A model generated the notes under the pieces. The model saw nothing but the letters and a program-made list of their open reading frames with translations, did no database searches and was not told the DNA's origin. Source: Candidatus Vampirococcus lugosii (GTDB lineage: Bacteria; Patescibacteriota; Gracilibacteria; Absconditabacterales; Absconditicoccaceae). From it: a stretch of 8,645 nt of DNA. The translations under genes were made by a program, and so were the position numbers. This document shows positions 1-8,645 of the stretch, piece after piece; the first letter of the stretch is position 1; each line of letters starts with the position of its first letter. The stretch is taken from the NCBI RefSeq assembly GCF_018420025.1, contig NZ_JAEDAM010000043.1, positions 1 through 8,645 of the forward strand, given 5' to 3'.

Positions 1-568
1 TACCTCCCTTCTTTGATTCAGTTATAATCTCAAAACTGAATTGAACATAATTCTTTGTAATGATATACGAGTTCAATCTCTTCCCAATATTATTATATTT
101 GTTGAAGTGTTTGTGATACTTTATTGGTAAGTCTATAATCATTTTATTACCAACACTGGCTATGTGTAACCAAGCATCGAATAATCTACTTTCTTCGGTT
201 TTATATCCACTATTCCTTGTTGGCACTAAGTCAGCAATGGTACAACTAACATACATTCTGTTACCTTTATGTACTGGTACAACCATTTTATTTGGCTTAT
301 CTTTCCATCTTTGTTTTGTTGCCAACACCATGTCAATTGCTTCTCTTGCAGCAACCTTTCGTAGTCGTGCAGATAACCATGTTTCTGGTAAATCCACCAA
401 CGGTTTTAATAATTGTGATTTTGAAGGGATGTTATTGAGGTCAGACCAAAAATGTTGAATGAAGAAATTAACTACCTTTCCATATTCGGTTAAGATAGTA
501 TTTAATTCCAACATCTTTTTCTTTGTTGTGAACTTCAAACTACATTTGGTTGACCTTATTAGTTTCAT
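1..568 (-). CDS. tnpB: TnpB/OrfB-like protein (IS607-associated, RNA-guided nuclease family); N-terminal 189 codons only, the rest lies beyond the left edge
   Basis: Not in the supplied track because there is no stop inside the window. Hand check: the minus-strand frame with codon tops at 568, 565 ... 4 has no TAA/TAG/TGA from 568 down to 2. The ATG at 568-566 overlaps the tnpA stop (TGA 567-565) as ATGA. Translation: MKLIRSTKCSLKFTTKKKMLELNTILTEYGKVVNFFIQHFWSDLNNIPSKSQLLKPLVDLPETWLSARLRKVAAREAIDMVLATKQRWKDKPNKMVVPVHKGNRMYVSCTIADLVPTRNSGYKTEESRLFDAWLHIASVGNKMIIDLPIKYHKHFNKYNNIGKRLNSYIITKNYVQFSFEIITESKKGG. This has the layout I recognise from TnpB N-terminal halves and stops just before where the RuvC-I GxDxG motif would be. 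It sits directly downstream of an IS607-type tnpA. Recognition is from memory of the family; no search was run. Confidence 0.8.
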   Translation of the reverse strand, partial: MKLIRSTKCSLKFTTKKKMLELNTILTEYGKVVNFFIQHFWSDLNNIPSKSQLLKPLVDLPETWLSARLRKVAAREAIDMVLATKQRWKDKPNKMVVPVHKGNRMYVSCTIADLVPTRNSGYKTEESRLFDAWLHIASVGNKMIIDLPIKYHKHFNKYNNIGKRLNSYIITKNYVQFSFEIITESKKGG

Positions 569-1182
569 TTCTTTTTTTGTTCTTTCAAATCTTTTTTACG
601 TTTAACGCTACGCTTACCATATAATTTACCACTAAAACTTGCCATGAGCATCATAATGTCATTAACAAATTCTTCTTCCTCTGAAATGTTTTTGTTTTCA
701 ATACATTCAATTTCTACATCATAACTATTAAAGAAGGTCTTAATCAAATTATATTGAAATCTGGTTAAACGGTCTTTGTTTTCAATTACAATTTTAATGA
801 TTTTTTTCTTAATAACCAAATCCACGAGTTTAGTGAATCCCACTCTCGTATCGGATAATCCAGAACCAACATCTTTTATTATATGTTCAACCTTATATTT
901 TTTCTTCGCACAATACTCCGATATTCTTTGAGATTGTCTATCCAAATCTCCTTTCTGTTTTTGTTCGTGAGAACTAACTCTGGCATAGGTTGCAACCGAA
1001 TGGTTAATATATTCGATTTTTTGTTCTCCCATGAATTTTAAAATATCATTTTCATTATATTTTCGATGACCACCAACAGTTCTAATTGATGAAAGTTTTC
1101 CTTCATTATCCCAAATACGAAGGGTTTTCTTGGTTACTCCAAGAAGTTCAGATACCTTTTGTATTGATAAGAGTTTACTCAT
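565..1182 (-). CDS. tnpA: IS607-family transposase TnpA (serine recombinase with N-terminal MerR-like HTH)
   Basis: N-terminal HTH (LLSIQKVSELLGVTKKTLRIWDNEGKL...GGHRKY) is followed by a serine-recombinase core (ATYARVSSHEQKQKGDLDRQ with the nucleophile Ser in YARVSS; IVIENKDRLTRF). HTH-then-catalytic order is characteristic of IS607 TnpA. The track start at 1194 is a TTG codon (plus-strand caa at 1192-1194). The ATG at 1182-1180 (MSKLLSIQ...) is the more likely start. Confidence 0.92.
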   Translation of the reverse strand: MSKLLSIQKVSELLGVTKKTLRIWDNEGKLSSIRTVGGHRKYNENDILKFMGEQKIEYINHSVATYARVSSHEQKQKGDLDRQSQRISEYCAKKKYKVEHIIKDVGSGLSDTRVGFTKLVDLVIKKKIIKIVIENKDRLTRFQYNLIKTFFNSYDVEIECIENKNISEEEEFVNDIMMLMASFSGKLYGKRSVKRKKDLKEQKKK

Positions 1183-1390
1183 TAGACTGTTCAAGAATTT
1201 TTAAAATAATTTCTTTACTGGAATCCAAAATCTTCTGAAATTCCCAAACTGAAATATCTTCATCAATATCAAGTTCAAAAGGTATTGGGTACACGTCACC
1301 ATTGTCGAGTTCGAATTCGTCTTTATCGACACGAACTACATTTAATGACTTCTTTTTAAGGTTCTCCATAATTTTATTAATCTTTTTCAT
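1175..1390 (-). CDS. Small acidic hypothetical protein (71 aa), translationally coupled to tnpA
   Basis: ATG at 1390-1388. Its stop TAA (1177-1175) overlaps the tnpA ATG (1182-1180) in the string ATGAGTAA. It has an acidic core (DKDEFELDNGDVYPIPFELDIDEDISVWE). I recognise no family. Confidence 0.5.
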   Translation of the reverse strand: MKKINKIMENLKKKSLNVVRVDKDEFELDNGDVYPIPFELDIDEDISVWEFQKILDSSKEIILKILEQSNE

Positions 1391-1430
1391 ATATAAATAC
1401 TTTAAATTTTCGTAAAAGTAATAAAATTTA

Positions 1431-1470
1431 GTTAAAATAAGTAGATTTTTGTATAATTTTGTTTAATTAT
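1431..1470. repeat. Four tandem 10-bp units, each starting with GT, in phase with the helical repeat (gttaaaataa/gtagattttt/gtataatttt/gtttaattat)
   Basis: Read directly: G occurs at 1431, 1441, 1451 and 1461 in a spacer that is otherwise almost free of G/C. The units are followed by palindromes GTTAAC (1473-1478) and GTTAATTAAC (1480-1489). Function is not established. Confidence 0.4.
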
Positions 1471-1473
1471 TTG

Positions 1474-1887
1474 TTAACTGTTAATTAACCCATTATCAAG
1501 TTTCATGTATTGATAAATTGGTTTATAATCGACAAAACAAAATTCTTTTTTATCAGGCATAATATATAAATCTATATTATATTTAAGAACAAAATCATTC
1601 CACCACTTATATTTTAAGCATGCATTTGTATCACATAAAATTAAAATAACTCTTTTAAAATCACCATTTATAATTCTATTTGAAATCATTTCTAATGAAT
1701 GAACTCCTATTATAGTAATTTCGTCATCAGTTATTTTTTCTGTTTTTTTACCACAATAAATACCCATATTTGTATTTTTACCAAAAAAATTATTAAATTT
1801 TACATTAGAAACATATAAGTCACAATCTAATGCTTCTGATAAATAAGGTGCTGCAAAAAATGCACTGTGTTCTGTAAGTATTATCAT
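1474..1887 (-). CDS. Hypothetical protein (137 aa), last gene of the glycosyltransferase operon
   Basis: ATG-initiated ORF lying 3 nt downstream of the preceding gene, on the same strand, which implies co-transcription. I recognise no motif with confidence. Confidence 0.6.
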   Translation of the reverse strand: MIILTEHSAFFAAPYLSEALDCDLYVSNVKFNNFFGKNTNMGIYCGKKTEKITDDEITIIGVHSLEMISNRIINGDFKRVILILCDTNACLKYKWWNDFVLKYNIDLYIMPDKKEFCFVDYKPIYQYMKLDNGLINS

Positions 1888-1890
1888 GTT

Positions 1891-2568
1891 TTATTTAATT
1901 TTAAATCTTGATTTTTTTCTTTTTAACAATGAAAAATATTTAGGACTATCATAAATTGGATTTTTTGTAATTAAATATTTTAATTCTGGATTTAAAAAAA
2001 TAGCAAAATTAGCTGATAATTGGTCTCTATGGGAATAGTTTTTTATCTCAAACCACCAATCATCAAAGAATTTTTTAACTCTTTCATTATTTTTAAACAA
2101 AATAACACCACCTTCAATCAATCCATTATTATATTCATAACCAAATTCTTTATGTCTTTCTTTTATTTTTTCAATGATTTCTTTTTTATCATATTTATTT
2201 TCAACAATAACATTAAATTGGTCTTTAATGCTTTTTTGTCTATGTTTCATAAATACAATATCTTTATTATCCAATCTTTTCAAATATTCGTTAATATCTT
2301 TAATTATCTTTATTCTACCATCAATGTAAAGATATACACCATATTTATTTAAATGTTTTAGTACTTGTGTTTTATACTCTTTTGATAATTTAATGTGGTC
2401 AATTTCATTTTTTGAATTATTATCGATATATATTATTTTCCAAAACTTTGATTTTATATTTCTATTATCTGTAAAACAAATATAATCCCAACCATTTGAT
2501 TTTATGTTATTATCATTTAAATCACAATAATTATTCGTAATCACGGTATATACACACTTTTTATTCAT
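1891..2568 (-). CDS. DUF616/TOD1-like putative glycosyltransferase
   Basis: N-terminal CVYTVITNNYCDLND...WDYICFTD and C-terminal SHRDQLSANFA match the pattern I recall for the DUF616 family (vYTaIfGnYD ... cFtD ... RDQLSf.y). Its ATG overlaps the upstream stop as ATGA (2568-2565). Confidence 0.65.
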   Translation of the reverse strand: MNKKCVYTVITNNYCDLNDNNIKSNGWDYICFTDNRNIKSKFWKIIYIDNNSKNEIDHIKLSKEYKTQVLKHLNKYGVYLYIDGRIKIIKDINEYLKRLDNKDIVFMKHRQKSIKDQFNVIVENKYDKKEIIEKIKERHKEFGYEYNNGLIEGGVILFKNNERVKKFFDDWWFEIKNYSHRDQLSANFAIFLNPELKYLITKNPIYDSPKYFSLLKRKKSRFKIK

Positions 2569-3611
2569 AATATTTCAACAAAACCATTAACTTCTCTTGA
2601 GATGGATTTGACTTCTTTTTTCAATGATTTTTTTAATAAATGATATTTTTTTCTCATCACTGATTTCATTGATGTATTATTGTTAATTGTTAATGCATTT
2701 GAATGTTTTCTTCTTAGGAAAAGAGATTTATTTAAGTTAAAAATTTTTATATTGTTATTTGCAAATCTCAACAATAATTCACCATCTGCAGCACAAATCC
2801 AAGGCATATAACCACCAAATTCATCAATTATTTTTTTCTTATAAAATATTACGCCACCAGAATATACTTTTTTATTGGTATATACTTCTTTATTTGAAAA
2901 ATTAATGTATTTAAATTTTATTACATCGTTATTTTCAATAACCAACATTATTTCATTAACCATATTATATAACATAATATCATCACTATCAAATCGAATA
3001 ATATTTTCAAATTTTACTAAATTTAATAATGTATTTGAAGTAACATATGTCCCTTTATTACTTTCCATTAAATAAATCTGTAAATTACGATACTTATAAC
3101 GAATTTTCATTAACTTATTTAAAGTTTTTTCACACCCATCAACTCCAACCAATATTTCATAATTATTAAAACCATCGAAGTATGTTTGTTTTTCAATACT
3201 ATCCAAACATTCTTCAATATAATTTTGTGTTTGATATGCCGTAACTATTATTGAAATTGGTTGTCTATCTTCAATTGTAATTAAATTAGAAACAACATCA
3301 TTATTTATTAATTTCGATTTGTTTGATTTAACCAATTCGACATTTACGGGCTGTATTTGCCCCAAACGTCTTTTCATTTTATCATCCATGACTTCATTAC
3401 TATTTGATTTTGGTTTATATATTATTTGTTGTTCATTTATAACCTTATCTTTAGTAACGTCTTTATTAACTGGTGTACTTTTTAGTTCATTATCAATCTT
3501 GGTCTTATATGGAGATTTTGATTTAACAATCTTATTTAAAGAAGTTTTTTTTTGTGTGTATTCAACCTTCTTTTTTATTATTTTTTTTATATTTGATTGT
3601 CTTCGTTTCAT
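2565..3611 (-). CDS. GT2-family glycosyltransferase with a lysine-rich N-terminal extension of about 118 aa
   Basis: Classical GT2 (GT-A) signature from residue ~119: ISIIVTAYQTQNYIEECLDSIEKQTY...YEILVGVDGCEKT...NKGTYVTSNTLL...IRFDSDDIM (DxD = DSDD). The N-terminus, MKRRQSNIKKIIKKKVEYTQKKTSLNKIVKSKSPYKTK..., is basic and low-complexity. Confidence 0.9.
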   Translation of the reverse strand: MKRRQSNIKKIIKKKVEYTQKKTSLNKIVKSKSPYKTKIDNELKSTPVNKDVTKDKVINEQQIIYKPKSNSNEVMDDKMKRRLGQIQPVNVELVKSNKSKLINNDVVSNLITIEDRQPISIIVTAYQTQNYIEECLDSIEKQTYFDGFNNYEILVGVDGCEKTLNKLMKIRYKYRNLQIYLMESNKGTYVTSNTLLNLVKFENIIRFDSDDIMLYNMVNEIMLVIENNDVIKFKYINFSNKEVYTNKKVYSGGVIFYKKKIIDEFGGYMPWICAADGELLLRFANNNIKIFNLNKSLFLRRKHSNALTINNNTSMKSVMRKKYHLLKKSLKKEVKSISREVNGFVEIL

Positions 3612-3638
3612 AAATTAATATATAATATATTATTTTCT

Positions 3639-4451
3639 TCAAAATCCATAATATTTAGATAAAACTATTTCAGGTTTAATATTAATTATATTATATTTAT
3701 GTCCATCAGCAGAAATAGCAATATTTTCATTTTCATAATTCAAATAAGCATCACGAACTTTATTAAAATGTTGTATGTTATTACCATACCTTAATTTTGA
3801 TGCAGCATTATATATTTTTTTAAAAATATCTTTTCTAACATAACTTAGATGATGCATCTTAATAAAAGACTTATCTAAAATATTAATTAAATTATTTTGT
3901 TTTATTCCTACTTTTCTTGTTGGGTCTACCTTGACACCACAAGGAAAATTCATTACTAAGTCATATTTTACAGGAAAAAAACCGCTTACGTATAAATCAC
4001 CATCCATATATTTAGATGAATTAATTAAATATTTTGTATCTTTATAATAAGCAACTAAAGGAAGATATGTTACTATTTCTGGATTGGTTTTATGTAATTC
4101 AATTAATTTATTAAATTCTTCAGTAACATAAAATTCATCACAATCCAATGTCATATAATGTGTACATCCCTTTGCCTGTGCCAATCTTTTTCCCTGATTT
4201 CTTTTATTAATTTGATTTTGGTGAATTGATGTTGATTTATCTAATCTAAAAAATACTAAATCATTAACTAATCCTCTATTTTTAAGGGATTTAACTATAT
4301 TAATTTCCTTTTCAGTTAACTTTTCATCATAATAACTTGTTGTTTGAAATATTATTGATATGTGATCAACTACATTTCTTATTTGATTAATCGAATCTTC
4401 CAGTAATTCAACACCATCAAAAACATTATAACTAACACCAAATTTATACAT
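3639..4451 (-). CDS. Putative GT-A fold glycosyltransferase
   Basis: The N-terminal strand plus helix (FGVSYNVFDGVELLEDSINQIRNVVDHISIIFQ) and a DxD-type motif (HYMTLDCDEFY) are typical of GT-A enzymes. It is embedded between two clear GT genes with gaps of 27 and 5 nt. Confidence 0.6.
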   Translation of the reverse strand: MYKFGVSYNVFDGVELLEDSINQIRNVVDHISIIFQTTSYYDEKLTEKEINIVKSLKNRGLVNDLVFFRLDKSTSIHQNQINKRNQGKRLAQAKGCTHYMTLDCDEFYVTEEFNKLIELHKTNPEIVTYLPLVAYYKDTKYLINSSKYMDGDLYVSGFFPVKYDLVMNFPCGVKVDPTRKVGIKQNNLINILDKSFIKMHHLSYVRKDIFKKIYNAASKLRYGNNIQHFNKVRDAYLNYENENIAISADGHKYNIINIKPEIVLSKYYGF

Positions 4452-4456
4452 AATTA

Positions 4457-5942
4457 CTACAAATTTATATTATTTTCATTTATAAATACTAATAATTTTT
4501 TATAATCCTCAACAAATCTCTCATTTCCACCACTTATTTTATTTCTTGATATAGATTCGTAGTGAATGGCAACTGCGTCACTAACAGTAATATTTTTTAA
4601 ACCCAATGATTTACATCTCAAATTTAATTCAACATCTTCTAAACATTCAATATAATCTTCATTGAAGCCATCAAAAGATTTAAATAATTTCTTTTTTATT
4701 AATAAAAATCCACCCGTATTACCGATTGAATTGTAATTAACATCAGTAGAATAATTATTTATTTTTTTTATGTCTTTATGTGAGATCATTAATCTATCAT
4801 CGTTCATTGATAATGTTATCCCATTATGCTGAATAGATGAATCACCATAATGTAATCTAATACCAATAGTACCGACAGTATCTTTATTTTCATTATAAAT
4901 CTGAACACATCTGCTTAATGCATCATTCAATAAAACAATGTCGTCATTGCAAAATAATAATAATTCAGTATCGTCTGATACATGATTTTTAACCACATCA
5001 TTATTAATTTTAGCAAAATTATAATAATTATATTTTATTAATTTAATTCTACTATTCAATAAACTCTTATATGTTTCGAAAACTTCTGGTTGACTTCCGG
5101 TATCTGCAATAATAATCTCATAATTATCATATTCAACTACATTATTCCATGAATTAATGTTATTGATTATGTATTTAAGATTATTTTTTGTTGGTATTAT
5201 TACAGTTACTTTTGGTTTTGATGTTAATTCAATATCAAAATCTTCAAAATCTGGTAATACCGAAATAGGTAATTCATCTTTATATTTTTCAGCCAATTGC
5301 TTACGACTTTCTTCCCACTGCTGATTGGTTTGACCAACACTTTTATGTAATATTCTAATATCTGTTGTAACGCCAATATTACAACCGTCCAAGTAGTTAG
5401 GTAAACAAAAACTGGTGTCGTAGTGATGAAATCCTTTAAAATCTTCGTCAAAATAGTGTTCTAAATTACTTGGATTAACTGCCATGAATAATCCATCGAT
5501 TAAAACAGTTGGTGTTATCTGACCCTTTCTTTCCACAGAGTATTGGCTAGTCCATTCCTGAATTCCATCTGTATGATCGACAATACCCACCATTTTAGTT
5601 CTGTCTGTCCACCACACACCGTTTTCCGGCATGTAAGTGCTACCCGCTACACCAATAATATCGTAATCGGTGAAATTGAATTTATGTAGTAAAATCTTGC
5701 CCCAATTTTTTGTTCTGAATATAATATCTGGATGTACAAATAATATAATAACATTATCCCCCTTATATTTATCAAGTGCTTTATTATAAATCTCAGTTAA
5801 TGAAAATTGATTATAGTTTTCATAACAAACAATATCATAGTTTTTAATACCGATGGTTTGTTTAATATGTTCAATAAATTTATTATTCTCAATATCACCT
5901 AAATGTGATGAAAATATTGTAATTATTTTATTTTTTTTTCAT
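4457..5942 (-). CDS. Two-domain glycosyltransferase: N-terminal Glyco_tranf_2_5-like GT-A domain plus C-terminal GT2 domain. As assembled, the ATG is out of frame by one base in an A9 tract
   Basis: C-terminal domain: KVTVIIPTKNNLKYI...YEIIIADTGSQPE...LLLFCNDDIVL (GT2). N-terminal domain: IDGLFMAVNPSNLEHYFDEDFKGFHHYDTSFCL...IRILHKSVG, matching the pattern I recall for Glyco_tranf_2_5. The track starts at ATG 5632, but I verified that the same frame is open up to 5938. That stretch encodes KKNKIITIFSSHLGD...GDNVIILFVHPDIIF...DIIGVAGSTY, the missing first half of the N-terminal GT-A domain. This frame contains no ATG/GTG/TTG. ATG 5942-5940 joins it if the A9 run (5931-5939) is read as A8, giving 494 aa. 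Confidence 0.8.
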
Positions 5943-6183
5943 AATTAATCCACTTATCATATTTTCTACTTAATCCAAATTTACTACCAGAATAGATAAA
6001 ATTCATAAATTTTATTGCATCCTTCTGTTTAGATATTGTTATTTGCGAATATCTACCTTGTTTAGTTATATATCTATAACATTTATAATCAATATCAATT
6101 AAATTAAAAAAAGACCAATCATAGTCGTAAGTTCCACTAAATCTAACCCTAATATAATTTCTACCATCACATGAGATTGACAT
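5923..6183 (-). CDS. LAGLIDADG homing endonuclease, C-terminal fragment
   Basis: In this frame the five codons just upstream of its ATG read DADGN, so the frame carries the rest of the motif (FFRGFF|DADGNMSISCDG...). The C-terminal GLSRKYDKW resembles the conserved L.RK tail of this family. Confidence 0.8.
   Translation of the reverse strand: MSISCDGRNYIRVRFSGTYDYDWSFFNLIDIDYKCYRYITKQGRYSQITISKQKDAIKFMNFIYSGSKFGLSRKYDKWINYEKKIK
5931..5939. repeat. T9 (sense-strand A9) homopolymer immediately after ATG 5942-5940
   Basis: Counted directly in tttttttttc at 5931-5940. The sense strand reads ATG AAA AAA AAA TAA as assembled. Confidence 0.95.
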
Positions 6184-6196
6184 ATTACCATCTGCA

Positions 6197-6916
6197 TCAA
6201 AAAAACCCTCTAAAAAAATATGAATGATAGATTTTATCTATATATTCTAATAAAATTTGAGGATTAATGTATGATTTTAGGTCGAATTTATATTTTATTA
6301 GTTCGTTAACTAATAAAATATTATGTGTTGATACACATAATTGATTATTTACTCTTTTGTTGTTAAAAAATTTTTTAATTGGTTTACTTATATTCCAATC
6401 ACCTGTTTTTCTAAAAACATCAATTAATTCAATCATATCACTTTCAATCATATTTACAACAATACGTGAAAGATTCACATTTATATTACCATCTCCCCAA
6501 ATTAGCCCCAATATATAAACTATTTCAGGTGTATTAAATTTTAAAAAGGTATTATAATTAACTTTATTTGAACGTAATTTAAATCCTCTCCTATTATTTT
6601 TTAATTTATGTTGAGTATCTGAATATTTAATATTTAATGAATTTGCTTTTTTAATAATATCAGATATTTCTCGATTTAATTCTTTTGCAACTAACTCTGA
6701 ACCATATGTTGAATAATTGGTTCTTAAAAAATCAATTTCATTAAGAGACCATTTATTACTTTGACCTAAAAATTTTCTATTAATCTTTAATTCCTTTACT
6801 TTAGAATAAATAGATTCTTTGGTTCTATCTAAATTAATAGAACAATACTCTCTACCATACAATGGATATTTTTCAATTAAGAAATTAATATCATCTTTAG
6901 TCCAAGTTTTTTTCAT
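6197..6916 (-). CDS. LAGLIDADG homing endonuclease, N-terminal fragment (two Myb/SANT-like HTH repeats plus the first LAGLIDADG motif)
   Basis: First motif YILGLIWGDGNI is at 6479-6517. There is a tandem repeat W-x-x-[DN]-[DE]-I-[ND]-F-L-x3-Y-x2-YG-x-E ... L-[DN]-R ... (residues ~5-46 and ~56-97). The fragment ends ...YHSYFFRGFF then TGA (6199-6197), half-way through the second motif. Confidence 0.85.
   Translation of the reverse strand: MKKTWTKDDINFLIEKYPLYGREYCSINLDRTKESIYSKVKELKINRKFLGQSNKWSLNEIDFLRTNYSTYGSELVAKELNREISDIIKKANSLNIKYSDTQHKLKNNRRGFKLRSNKVNYNTFLKFNTPEIVYILGLIWGDGNINVNLSRIVVNMIESDMIELIDVFRKTGDWNISKPIKKFFNNKRVNNQLCVSTHNILLVNELIKYKFDLKSYINPQILLEYIDKIYHSYFFRGFF
6199..6205. repeat. 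A7 (sense-strand T7) homopolymer at the homing-endonuclease frameshift point
   Basis: Counted directly: plus strand gcatc-aaaaaaa-ccctc. The sense strand reads AGA GGG TTT TTT TGA. Confidence 0.95.
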
Positions 6917-7787
6917 ATAATGCTTTTTTTATTGTTTCATATTCTTTGGCTTTTTCCAATTCACATCTGTCACCATAACCAATTTCAATCATTCTTTTAA
7001 AAAACGGTTCAAAATCTTTAGCATATTTAACTAATTCATCTAATATTGAACTATTATAATCTGGTGTTGAAGATGCAATGTTTTCAACTAATGATAACAT
7101 TGACGGTACAGATGAATTTATATATCTTAAAATTTCTCTCGCTCCTTTATTTATTATATATCGTGGTACATCATTTTTTTTAGCCCATTGAACAATTTGA
7201 TTCGGATAAACACCTACAAGTTTAAACATAATATCCCTATAATGTTTTATTATATTTCCTTGGTCTTTAGTAAAACCATAATTTTTCATGGCGATTGCTT
7301 TACTATTATTTCGTTGAACTTGGTGTTTTGTATTTTCCTGAACAGTATTTGGTGTTGTTGTTACTAAAAATGAATATCCGTATCGTAATAATTCTTCAAT
7401 TCTATCATTACACCAAATAGAAAAATCTGCAGATAACCATCTTGCAATTTCCAATGCTATGCCTTTGTGAACCCAAGTACCTTGTTGTTTATTTAAACCA
7501 CCTCTAACAACATTAACTGATTCTGGAAACATTTTCGCTAAGTTACTGAAATTCAACGACATCGGTATGTCGATGTCGTTGATACTCAATGACTTAGAAT
7601 TTCTTGTACAATATTTATATGTTATTTCTCTTCTGGTTGGGTCATCAAGAAAATGCCCGATGTTCTTACCAAACGGTTTAACCATATCAGTAACATTAAT
7701 CATTATGTTATTAATGTTATTTAAAAATGATACATCATATTTAACACCATTTTGAGAATATTTATATATTACAATATTATTTTTCAT
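6897..7787 (-). CDS. KilA-N domain protein with an uncharacterised C-terminal half
   Basis: YDVSFLNNINNIMINVTDMVKPFGKNIGHFL...VRGGLNKQQGTWVHKGIALEIARWLSADFSIWCNDRIEELL matches the KilA-N core (G-T-W-V-H ... A-x-W-L-S-x-x-F). The last 20 nt overlap the homing-endonuclease start. Confidence 0.85.
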   Translation of the reverse strand: MKNNIVIYKYSQNGVKYDVSFLNNINNIMINVTDMVKPFGKNIGHFLDDPTRREITYKYCTRNSKSLSINDIDIPMSLNFSNLAKMFPESVNVVRGGLNKQQGTWVHKGIALEIARWLSADFSIWCNDRIEELLRYGYSFLVTTTPNTVQENTKHQVQRNNSKAIAMKNYGFTKDQGNIIKHYRDIMFKLVGVYPNQIVQWAKKNDVPRYIINKGAREILRYINSSVPSMLSLVENIASSTPDYNSSILDELVKYAKDFEPFFKRMIEIGYGDRCELEKAKEYETIKKALYEKNLD

Positions 7788-7806
7788 ATAAAAAAATCTT
7801 ACAATT

Positions 7807-7820
7807 TTTGCAACTGCAAA
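7807..7820. promoter_or_regulatory. 14-bp palindrome TTTGCA-NN-TGCAAA in the 66-nt spacer upstream of the KilA-N gene
   Basis: Read directly (tttgcaactgcaaa). It is the only G/C-containing dyad in the largest spacer among the right-hand genes (7788-7853). Its function as operator, terminator or neither is not established. Confidence 0.3.
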
Positions 7821-7853
7821 CTTAACAAATTTAAACTAAATATACAAATTTAT

Positions 7854-8168
7854 TTACTGATTAATAATTGTTTCCATTATTGTCTCATAATCTTGTCTAA
7901 CTTTTGATAATGGAAATGGTATTCTAATTAAATCATTATCAACAATATCAAATTCACTAACATATTTAGAATTTGCTAATAAAATTAAAAAATCATAAAA
8001 TGGATTTCCATAATATTTTTGGCTTAATTTATCCAATCTACTAAATTCAGAATTCCATCTCTCATATTTATCAGTTGGATTAATGGGTAATTTAATAAAT
8101 GGCATCATGTTAGGTAAACCATTTTCTTGTCTTAATAAACTATATTTATCATAATCTTGTTTTGGCAT
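7854..8168 (-). CDS. LysM-like / phage tail protein X-like small protein
   Basis: SRLDKLSQKYYGNPFYDFLILLANSKYVSEFDIVDNDLIRIPFP resembles the LysM / Phage_tail_X pattern (D-x-[IL]-[AS]-x-x-YYG ... [IL]-x-x-AN ... L-x-IP). The assignment is by eye only. Confidence 0.5.
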   Translation of the reverse strand: MPKQDYDKYSLLRQENGLPNMMPFIKLPINPTDKYERWNSEFSRLDKLSQKYYGNPFYDFLILLANSKYVSEFDIVDNDLIRIPFPLSKVRQDYETIMETIINQ

Positions 8169-8214
8169 AATTGATATGTTGTGTTATAGTTCTGATGTAA
8201 AATTATTTATTTGT

Positions 8215-8624
8215 TTAATTATCATCATTATCATTATTATTATTAGATTCATTATCACCATCATTAACTCCATATTGTTTAGATTCAACAAACGATGGTG
8301 TTCTATATGTACCTTGATTAACATATGTTGAATTAGCATAATAATTAAAAGATAACGCATTTTGTAATGCATTAATTGGACCTCTTAATGATTGACCACC
8401 AATTATTTTTATTTGTAAACTAACATTAGCAATCATTGGTTGCATACCAAAACCTTCGGGATTCATATCCCAAGGTGAATCATCGTAATCAATAGTAAGA
8501 TTTTCAATAATTATTTTTGTATGAAAAAAATCACCAATTCTTAAAACACAAATTGGTTGACGACCAAAAACTGAATTTTTTGATCTAACAATACCATTTT
8601 CATCAACTTCTGGTTTTACATTCA
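8215..8624 (-). CDS. Partial (5'-truncated) protein, possibly a tail-tube/baseplate-type virion protein, with an Asn/Asp-rich tail
   Basis: The frame is open to the contig end. The 'start' in the track is a TTG created at the adapter junction, so the true N-terminus is missing. ...DYDDSPWDMNPEGFGMQPMIANVSLQIKIIGGQSL... recalls the C-terminal strands of tube-fold baseplate proteins, but my recollection is weak. Its neighbour is a LysM/tail-X-like gene. Confidence 0.35.
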
Positions 8625-8645
8625 AGATCGGAAGAGCAACACGTC
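8625..8645. other. Illumina TruSeq adapter remnant (non-biological sequence)
   Basis: AGATCGGAAGAGCAACACGTC versus adapter AGATCGGAAGAGCACACGTC...: 13-nt perfect prefix, then one extra A. It is 12/21 G+C in a far more AT-rich context, at the extreme contig end. Confidence 0.9.

Follow-up and report, generated by a model that had tools for sequence, protein, structure and literature searches.

Results

Gene organisation of the locus

The window, by which we mean the whole stretch of 8,645 nucleotides that was analysed, carries at its left edge three minus-strand genes, orfX, tnpA and tnpB, which are chained to one another via overlapping stop and start codons, and at its right edge genes shared with phages. 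The features referred to below are the following.

2..568, minus strand: tnpB codons 1-189 (WED/REC half); open frame, 93% identical to the full-length relative P0001
162..458, plus strand: 98-aa antisense shadow ORF, not a gene; wholly within the tnpB frame
565..568, minus strand: ATGA overlap of the tnpA stop and tnpB start (ATG 568..566, TGA 567..565), read from the sequence
565..1182, minus strand: tnpA, IS607-family serine recombinase, 205 aa; start ATG at 1182, read from the sequence
1175..1390, minus strand: orfX, acidic 71-aa conserved protein; intact, 80-97% identical in more than 15 related loci
1391..1491, minus strand: left end (LE) of the element; boundary ..GG/GTTAATTAAC at 1489-1491 (the slash marks the boundary here and below)
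1474..1887, minus strand: interrupted phage ORF, 137 aa; boundary 1491 lies inside the ORF, whose translation ends ..KLDN/GLINS-stop
7854..8643, minus strand: phage backbone genes encoding 104 aa (7854..8168) and a 5'-cut 142 aa (8215..8643); 59-72% identical, syntenic

The product of tnpA matches the IS607-family model NF033518 with an E-value of 1.6e-55 over model positions 2-187 of 187, and combines an N-terminal MerR-type HTH (PF00376, 3.5e-11, residues 10-46) with a Resolvase domain (PF00239, 1.7e-19, residues 68-207), the catalytic domain of which carries the RVSS nucleophile motif in the stretch YARVSSHEQ. Together with the ATGA junction, this match bears out the earlier note's view that the partner gene is a genuine IS607 tnpA, translationally coupled to tnpB.

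Upstream, there is an 8-nt overlap (ATGAGTAA) between the stop of orfX and the start of tnpA. orfX is specific to this IS lineage, and its core, FEL..GD.YP..F, is invariant. The family comprises 113 clusters, none of which has a Pfam domain; orfX itself gave no match in Pfam or PHROG, and the Atlas returned merely 'hypothetical, Uroviricota' at 0.87. The AF2 model (pLDDT 88.7) consists of a helix, three strands and a helix, for which Foldseek found no match at E<=0.001 and the VIA-wide comparison only generic helical matches with Z<=5.1. A motif-based idea that orfX is AbrB/MazE-like was not borne out. Scans of the window for tRNAs and Rfam families returned none of either, and promoter and terminator scans of the window performed no better than chance.

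Identity of the truncated tnpB

The minus-strand frame 2..568 runs for 189 codons without a stop and leaves the window at the contig end. Given the base composition, a run of 189 codons would remain open by chance with a probability of about 7e-8, and in 20,000 shuffles the frame was never preserved. When the 189-aa fragment was used to search for homologues among longer proteins, 729 relatives were recovered (best E 5.6e-113, 93% identity), and the TnpB zinc ribbon PF07282 (Cas12f1-like) was present in all 120 of the relatives listed of these 729, which are 343-381 aa long. The alignment of the fragment with P0001 (378 aa, with PF07282) covers residues 1-189 of the latter, is free of gaps and shows 93% identity. 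The RuvC-I Asp of the family is residue 196, and the contig ends 7 residues earlier. These results agree with what the earlier note had read from the letters: a minus-strand frame open from 568 to the window edge, an ATG overlapping the tnpA stop, a TnpB-like N-terminal half cut just before the RuvC-I motif, and a plus-strand 98-aa ORF which is only the antisense shadow of that frame, homology lying entirely on the minus strand.

The test that had been set beforehand for this identity, a significant profile match of the 189-aa fragment to TnpB/OrfB, formally failed, as Pfam returned no match even at E<=10; NCBIfam likewise returned no TnpB model, merely a 12-bit trace of Cas12f2. We attribute the Pfam result to the fact that the Pfam models do not cover the N-terminal half of TnpB. 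The identification of the fragment as TnpB therefore derives from its homology to full-length proteins, and not from domain models.

Since the window is the entire contig (G000:C7, hereafter C7), leftward extension is impossible. Searches of the bin's other contigs with PF07282, PF01385 and the protein sequence did not recover the missing C-terminal half of tnpB. Thus, tnpB is truncated by an assembly break at the contig end. The earlier note had also put this copy forward as a candidate compact programmable nuclease, a suggestion that cannot stand, because what the window holds is half a gene of known type and hence no usable nuclease candidate in itself.

Catalytic residues and fold of the full-length family

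Keeping in mind that the catalytic half lies beyond the window, we examined it in 35 aligned full-length relatives, whose identities range over 27-91%. No variation was seen at E262 or at the four zinc-ribbon cysteines C320, C323, C338 and C341 (CxxC..CxxC), and at least 90% of the 35 sequences retain D196 and D348. E262 lies within a canonical RuvC-II motif, VVExLKN, 58 residues ahead of C320, and none of the 35 has a Glu within the six residues before C320.

An AF2 model of P0001 (pLDDT 91) was matched over its full length by AsCas12f, ISFba1 TnpB, Fanzor2 and ISDra2 TnpB, with more than 400 columns aligned for Cas12f and both TnpBs. In Foldseek the E-values were 3.6e-15 for ISFba1 TnpB and 6.6e-14 for mimivirus Fanzor2 (9b0l). 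The full-length match of the model implies that the N-terminal half encoded by the window constitutes the WED/REC part of the TnpB fold. At the level of sequence, the family profile reached 102 bits with Cas12f, 70.5 with ISFba1 TnpB (8IAZ), 66.8 with ISDra2 TnpB and 48.7 with mimivirus Fanzor2 L79; Fanzor2 was the lowest of the TnpB-like structures, with these bit scores against PDB serving as a proxy for a tree. Matches of the profile to PDB always ran via the C-terminal half.

These data also bear on whether the tnpB copy could be a decayed or domesticated remnant, either a pseudogene or a nuclease-dead, TldR-like regulator. The window does not include its C-terminal half, an intact tnpA is lacking upstream of tnpB in about 30% of the loci examined, and truncated tnpB copies do exist (L040, L042-L046). 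Against this, none of the 189 codons in the window is disrupted and their product shares 93% identity with a full-length protein, the reading frame is open in all 31 of the full-length relatives examined, the triad is near-invariant in the alignment above, the neighbouring tnpA and orfX are intact, and the break falls exactly at the contig end. We accordingly regard decay as improbable, and read the gene as a tnpB cut by the assembly. Full-length members such as P0001 can be tested directly: they represent a well-populated, compact lineage (364-381 aa) with intact catalytic residues, sharp ends and a covariation-supported scaffold, the last two of which are described in the following sections.

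Element ends, insertion site and architecture

Related loci, 41 from IMG/VR and 5 from GTDB genomes, were compared with the window. Their nucleotide similarity to it is confined to positions 1 to about 1496. At the left boundary, GG/GTTAAT (GG/GTTAATYAAC in relatives), the homology of 15 sequences begins sharply at GGGTTAAT, their flanks being unrelated, and TTAAC motifs are clustered within the left end at 1431-1489. The right end, as seen in relatives, is ..TTAACGG/T (AACGG/T), 3-35 nt past the tnpB stop. Across the related loci there are 12 distinct left flanks and 24 distinct right flanks. Terminal inverted repeats are absent, and the left flanks are G-rich and end in RGG.

The left boundary falls inside the ORF 1474..1887, the final five codons and stop of which are contributed by the left end of the IS, and this marks the insertion site. 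An empty counterpart of the site was sought in two ways: IMG/VR contains no close relative of the neighbouring glycosyltransferase, and the syntenic regions of jumbo phages have no homologue of the interrupted ORF.

Complete relatives measure 1.6-5.0 kb. A complete element of the form seen in the window would be about 2.1 kb long, so that about 590 nt are missing here, comprising the RuvC/zinc-ribbon half of tnpB, the predicted omega-RNA scaffold and the right end. Direct overlap of tnpA and tnpB recurs only in L029/L047, where the overlap is 14 nt; in the other loci 311-2,850 nt of extra ORFs lie between the two genes. In L011, L019, L020 and L041 this insert includes a ResIII/DEAD-box helicase ORF of 720-878 aa (about 3150-6000), while small ORFs of 0.3-0.8 kb occupy the same position elsewhere (e.g. 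L006:5682-6001). Judged from these gene orders, the tnpA-tnpB junction appears to behave as a cargo slot. At the other extreme is a tnpA-less form of 1.6 kb (L031:5562-7148), in which about 440 nt separate the left-end motif from the tnpB downstream of it.

L017 carries, at 3341-5115, a 201-aa ORF with a serine-recombinase motif followed by a 390-aa ORF. L013 shares an identical right flank with L012 and L016 and differs from them in the left flank, the elements themselves being near-identical, a pattern suggestive of either recombination among IS copies or a rearrangement mediated by the IS.

A predicted omega-RNA scaffold

The earlier note had placed the guide RNA just outside the window, at the 3' end of tnpB. 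As the right end lies only 3-35 nt past the tnpB stop, any 3' scaffold must overlap coding sequence. In 17 relatives RNAalifold predicted a structure of 45 pairs in the stretch from about 210 to about 65 nt ahead of the right end. Pairing was maintained in 95.9% of cells, as compared with 38-48% when the partners were slid, 14 pairs had changed on both sides as compared with 2-6 in the slid controls, and none of 500 shuffles matched the observed values. Because the alignment consists of coding DNA from related sequences, the structure is to be taken as supportive and not as proof. The predicted scaffold thus lies over the 3' end of tnpB in relatives, beyond the window edge, in keeping with the location that had been proposed.

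Rfam, including RAGATH-18, gave nothing at gathering score in three loci and nothing at E<=10 in L006:6600-7300, and no RAGATH-18 RNA was found in non-coding DNA downstream of tnpB in these relatives. Separately, a HEARO RNA (the IscB-type omega RNA of Rfam) was detected with 117 bits at L033:5732-5963 (plus strand), and also in L034 and L035. A tnpB relative with a degraded tnpA follows 38 nt downstream of it, an odd pairing of an IscB-type RNA with a TnpB.

Genetic code and origin of the contig

C7 is binned with a metagenome-assembled CPR genome of 1.26 Mb in 102 contigs. The genetic code was assessed contig by contig as the coverage by ORFs of at least 150 aa, under code 11 and with TGA as sense. 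For the contigs of the bin the median coverage was 2% under code 11 and 85% with TGA as sense, whereas C7 was an outlier, with 79% and 80%, respectively. None of the 13 complete ORFs of C7 contains an internal TGA, and four of the 13 end in TGA. C7 therefore reads as standard code inside a TGA-recoded (code-25) CPR bin, almost all remaining contigs of which require TGA as sense. In a host reading TGA as Gly, translation of tnpA would continue for two more residues, up to the TAA at 559-561.

The remaining two contigs of the bin that are compatible with the standard code are C18 (L053) and C72 (L052). C18 encodes archaeal TFE-alpha (TFE), aTrm56 and a MutS; the three ORFs of C72 gave no Pfam match. 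Given that C18 is archaeal and in standard code, the bin is contaminated, also by a low-GC archaeon.

It follows that the bin includes foreign contigs and that C7 is not to be read as CPR DNA. Were the element instead a resident IS of the CPR chromosome (Vampirococcus-like, TGA=Gly), its presence in the bin and the GC content of C7 (25%, near the bin's about 21%) would be accounted for; however, the bin needs TGA as sense and C7 does not, the complete ORFs of C7 lack internal TGA and include four that end in it, the bin is shown to be contaminated by the archaeal standard-code contig, and the backbone genes of C7 match jumbo phages (see below). We consider residence in the CPR chromosome very improbable. 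C7 is better understood as a jumbo-phage fragment misplaced in a TGA-recoded CPR bin, and is unfit for describing that organism.

The carrier phage

The T4-type capsid protein Gp23 was found in 8 of the 20 related records, and in three of the four among them that are at least 90% complete; the Gp23-positive records include a 340-kb genome with terminal repeats. A Pfam scan of 101 flanking proteins returned T4 Gp23, PhoH, ThyX, phage lysozyme and GIY-YIG domains, and a tail sheath was identified in one related record, although searches for Terminase_6C and tail sheath were uninformative in most. No close relative exists among the cultured phages of INPHARED, where all matches were partial and below 60% identity.

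The window itself can be connected to these phages through its backbone. The genes at 8215..8643 and 7854..8168, the N-terminus of 4457..5632 and the gene at 2565..3611 are 50-72% identical to, and syntenic with, genes of three Gp23 records, G001 (299 kb), G002 (340 kb, with terminal repeats) and G007. Based on this synteny, C7 is a fragment of a T4-like jumbo phage. The claim that the contig is virus-derived and carries glycosyltransferase genes is thereby upheld. Further, each of two phage records contains two copies of the element, which, taken with the many insertion sites, indicates mobility.

Between the conserved backbone genes, positions 5633-7853 of the window hold a KilA-N protein (6897..7787), a 239-aa protein (6197..6916) with D5-N-like and endonuclease-like PHROG matches, and an 86-aa ORF. 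All three are missing from the corresponding interval of the related phages, where the 104-aa gene adjoins a glycosyltransferase. This part of the window may be a second mobile module.

The earlier note had framed the find in terms of Fanzor nucleases and giant viruses, and in its strongest version this would make the gene a Fanzor2-type nuclease, or a direct ancestor of Fanzor, on the contig of a giant eukaryotic virus (NCLDV). In favour of this, Fanzor2 is known from giant viruses and is linked to IS607 (PMC3627910), the contig has a high AT content and carries KilA-N and glycosyltransferase genes, and the P0001 model does match mimivirus Fanzor2 in Foldseek, as given above. Yet the conserved Glu of the family sits about 58 residues before the zinc finger and not 6, as in Fanzors (PMC13565253), and the profile scores Fanzor2 lowest of the TnpB-like structures. 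The carriers, moreover, have a T4-type Gp23 and, in one case, a phage tail sheath, and synteny links the window backbone to the Gp23 phages; neither residence in a eukaryote or eukaryotic virus nor the relocated Glu was found. The NCLDV capsid PF04451 was found in none of five large records, a weak negative in that the controls were silent too, and Pox_A32 left sub-threshold traces only. Cumulatively, the carriers being Gp23-bearing T4-like jumbo phages and the Glu canonical, we abandon this framing as extremely improbable.

Discussion

We conclude, with a probability of roughly 90%, that positions 1..1491 of the window are the left three quarters of an IS607-family IS on the minus strand, in the order LE-orfX-tnpA-tnpB(1-189), inserted in a fragment of a T4-like jumbo phage and interrupted by an assembly break in tnpB. 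IS607 tnpA-tnpB pairs are well known; in the literature searched, we found no description of orfX, the cargo slot, the CDS-embedded scaffold or the phage habitat. In T4-like jumbo phages IS607 elements are apparently active, given their multiple copies per genome and many insertion sites, and their RNA-guided homing from phage to phage is an idea that lends itself to testing.

How such an element might spread can be sketched by analogy with characterised families. TnpA would excise the element in the form of a double-stranded circle and insert it at GG sites. TnpB would be loaded with RNA from the 3' end of its own transcript, where this crosses the right end into the flank, and the complex would be expected to cut IS-free copies of the site beside a G-rich TAM, the flanks ending in RGG. 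Recombination with an IS-bearing genome could then restore or spread the element; that TnpB cutting together with recombination preserves and spreads IS has been described in PMC10690162 and in PMC13565253. In recombination-proficient, co-infecting T4-like phages, such a process would amount to RNA-guided homing resembling that of Seg and Mob.

Taking this one step further, we tentatively raise the possibility, to which we give less than even odds, that the lineage is a phage-specialised, three-gene RNA-guided homing transposon. TnpB and its CDS-embedded omega RNA would spread it among co-infecting T4-like jumbo phages in the manner of Seg and Mob, orfX might act as a novel accessory factor, for example in regulation, in directionality or in anti-defence, and the tnpA-tnpB junction might ferry the helicase and other genes.

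Comparison with known systems

The hallmarks of IS607 elements are the lack of inverted repeats, GG termini and G-rich TAMs such as AGGAG and GAGGG (PMC13565253; PMC11061315). The element described here resembles the family in having no terminal inverted repeats, in its GG ends and insertion (the right end being taken from relatives) and in its G-rich left flanks. As in IS607, IS1535 and ISFba1, a serine-recombinase TnpA with an N-terminal MerR-like HTH is followed by an overlapping tnpB (PMC13565253, PMC6188088). It departs from the family in possessing a third gene, the 71-aa orfX upstream of tnpA, in the 0.3-2.9 kb of extra ORFs that relatives carry in the tnpA-tnpB slot, and in being carried by jumbo phages.

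Among the characterised nucleases, ISFba1 TnpB (PDB 8IAZ; PMC11061315) shares with the present family the linkage to IS607, a length of about 380-390 aa, the fold and the D-E-D triad. The reRNA of ISFba1, however, is derived from RAGATH-18 and lies entirely downstream of the CDS (PMC11061315), whereas here the element ends 3-35 nt past the stop. In this respect the relatives, given their predicted scaffold, would resemble ISDra2 (IS200/IS605; PDB 8EXA, 8H1J), in which the omega RNA extends over the 3' end of tnpB as far as the right end. ISDra2 TnpB also has the same RuvC and zinc-ribbon core (66.8 bits), but its partner is a Y1 HUH enzyme rather than a serine recombinase, its TAM is of the TTGAT type rather than a G-rich flank, and its N-terminal half has no similarity to the present one at the sequence level.

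With Fanzor2 (mimivirus L79, PDB 9B0L) the family has in common that it is an IS607-associated TnpB homologue, that it is virus-borne and that the overall fold is alike; Fanzor2 is set apart by its relocated Glu and its occurrence in eukaryotic viruses (PMC13565253), as opposed to the canonical Glu and phage carriers observed here. A parallel in habitat is offered by the Seg and Mob genes of T-even phages, selfish nuclease genes that, like the present element, lie in or between conserved genes of T4-like phages (PMC13565253). Seg and Mob are expected to spread during co-infection via cleavage and recombinational repair (PMC13565253), and the element described here would differ from them in that an RNA guide would direct its target recognition, which would also be coupled to a transposase.
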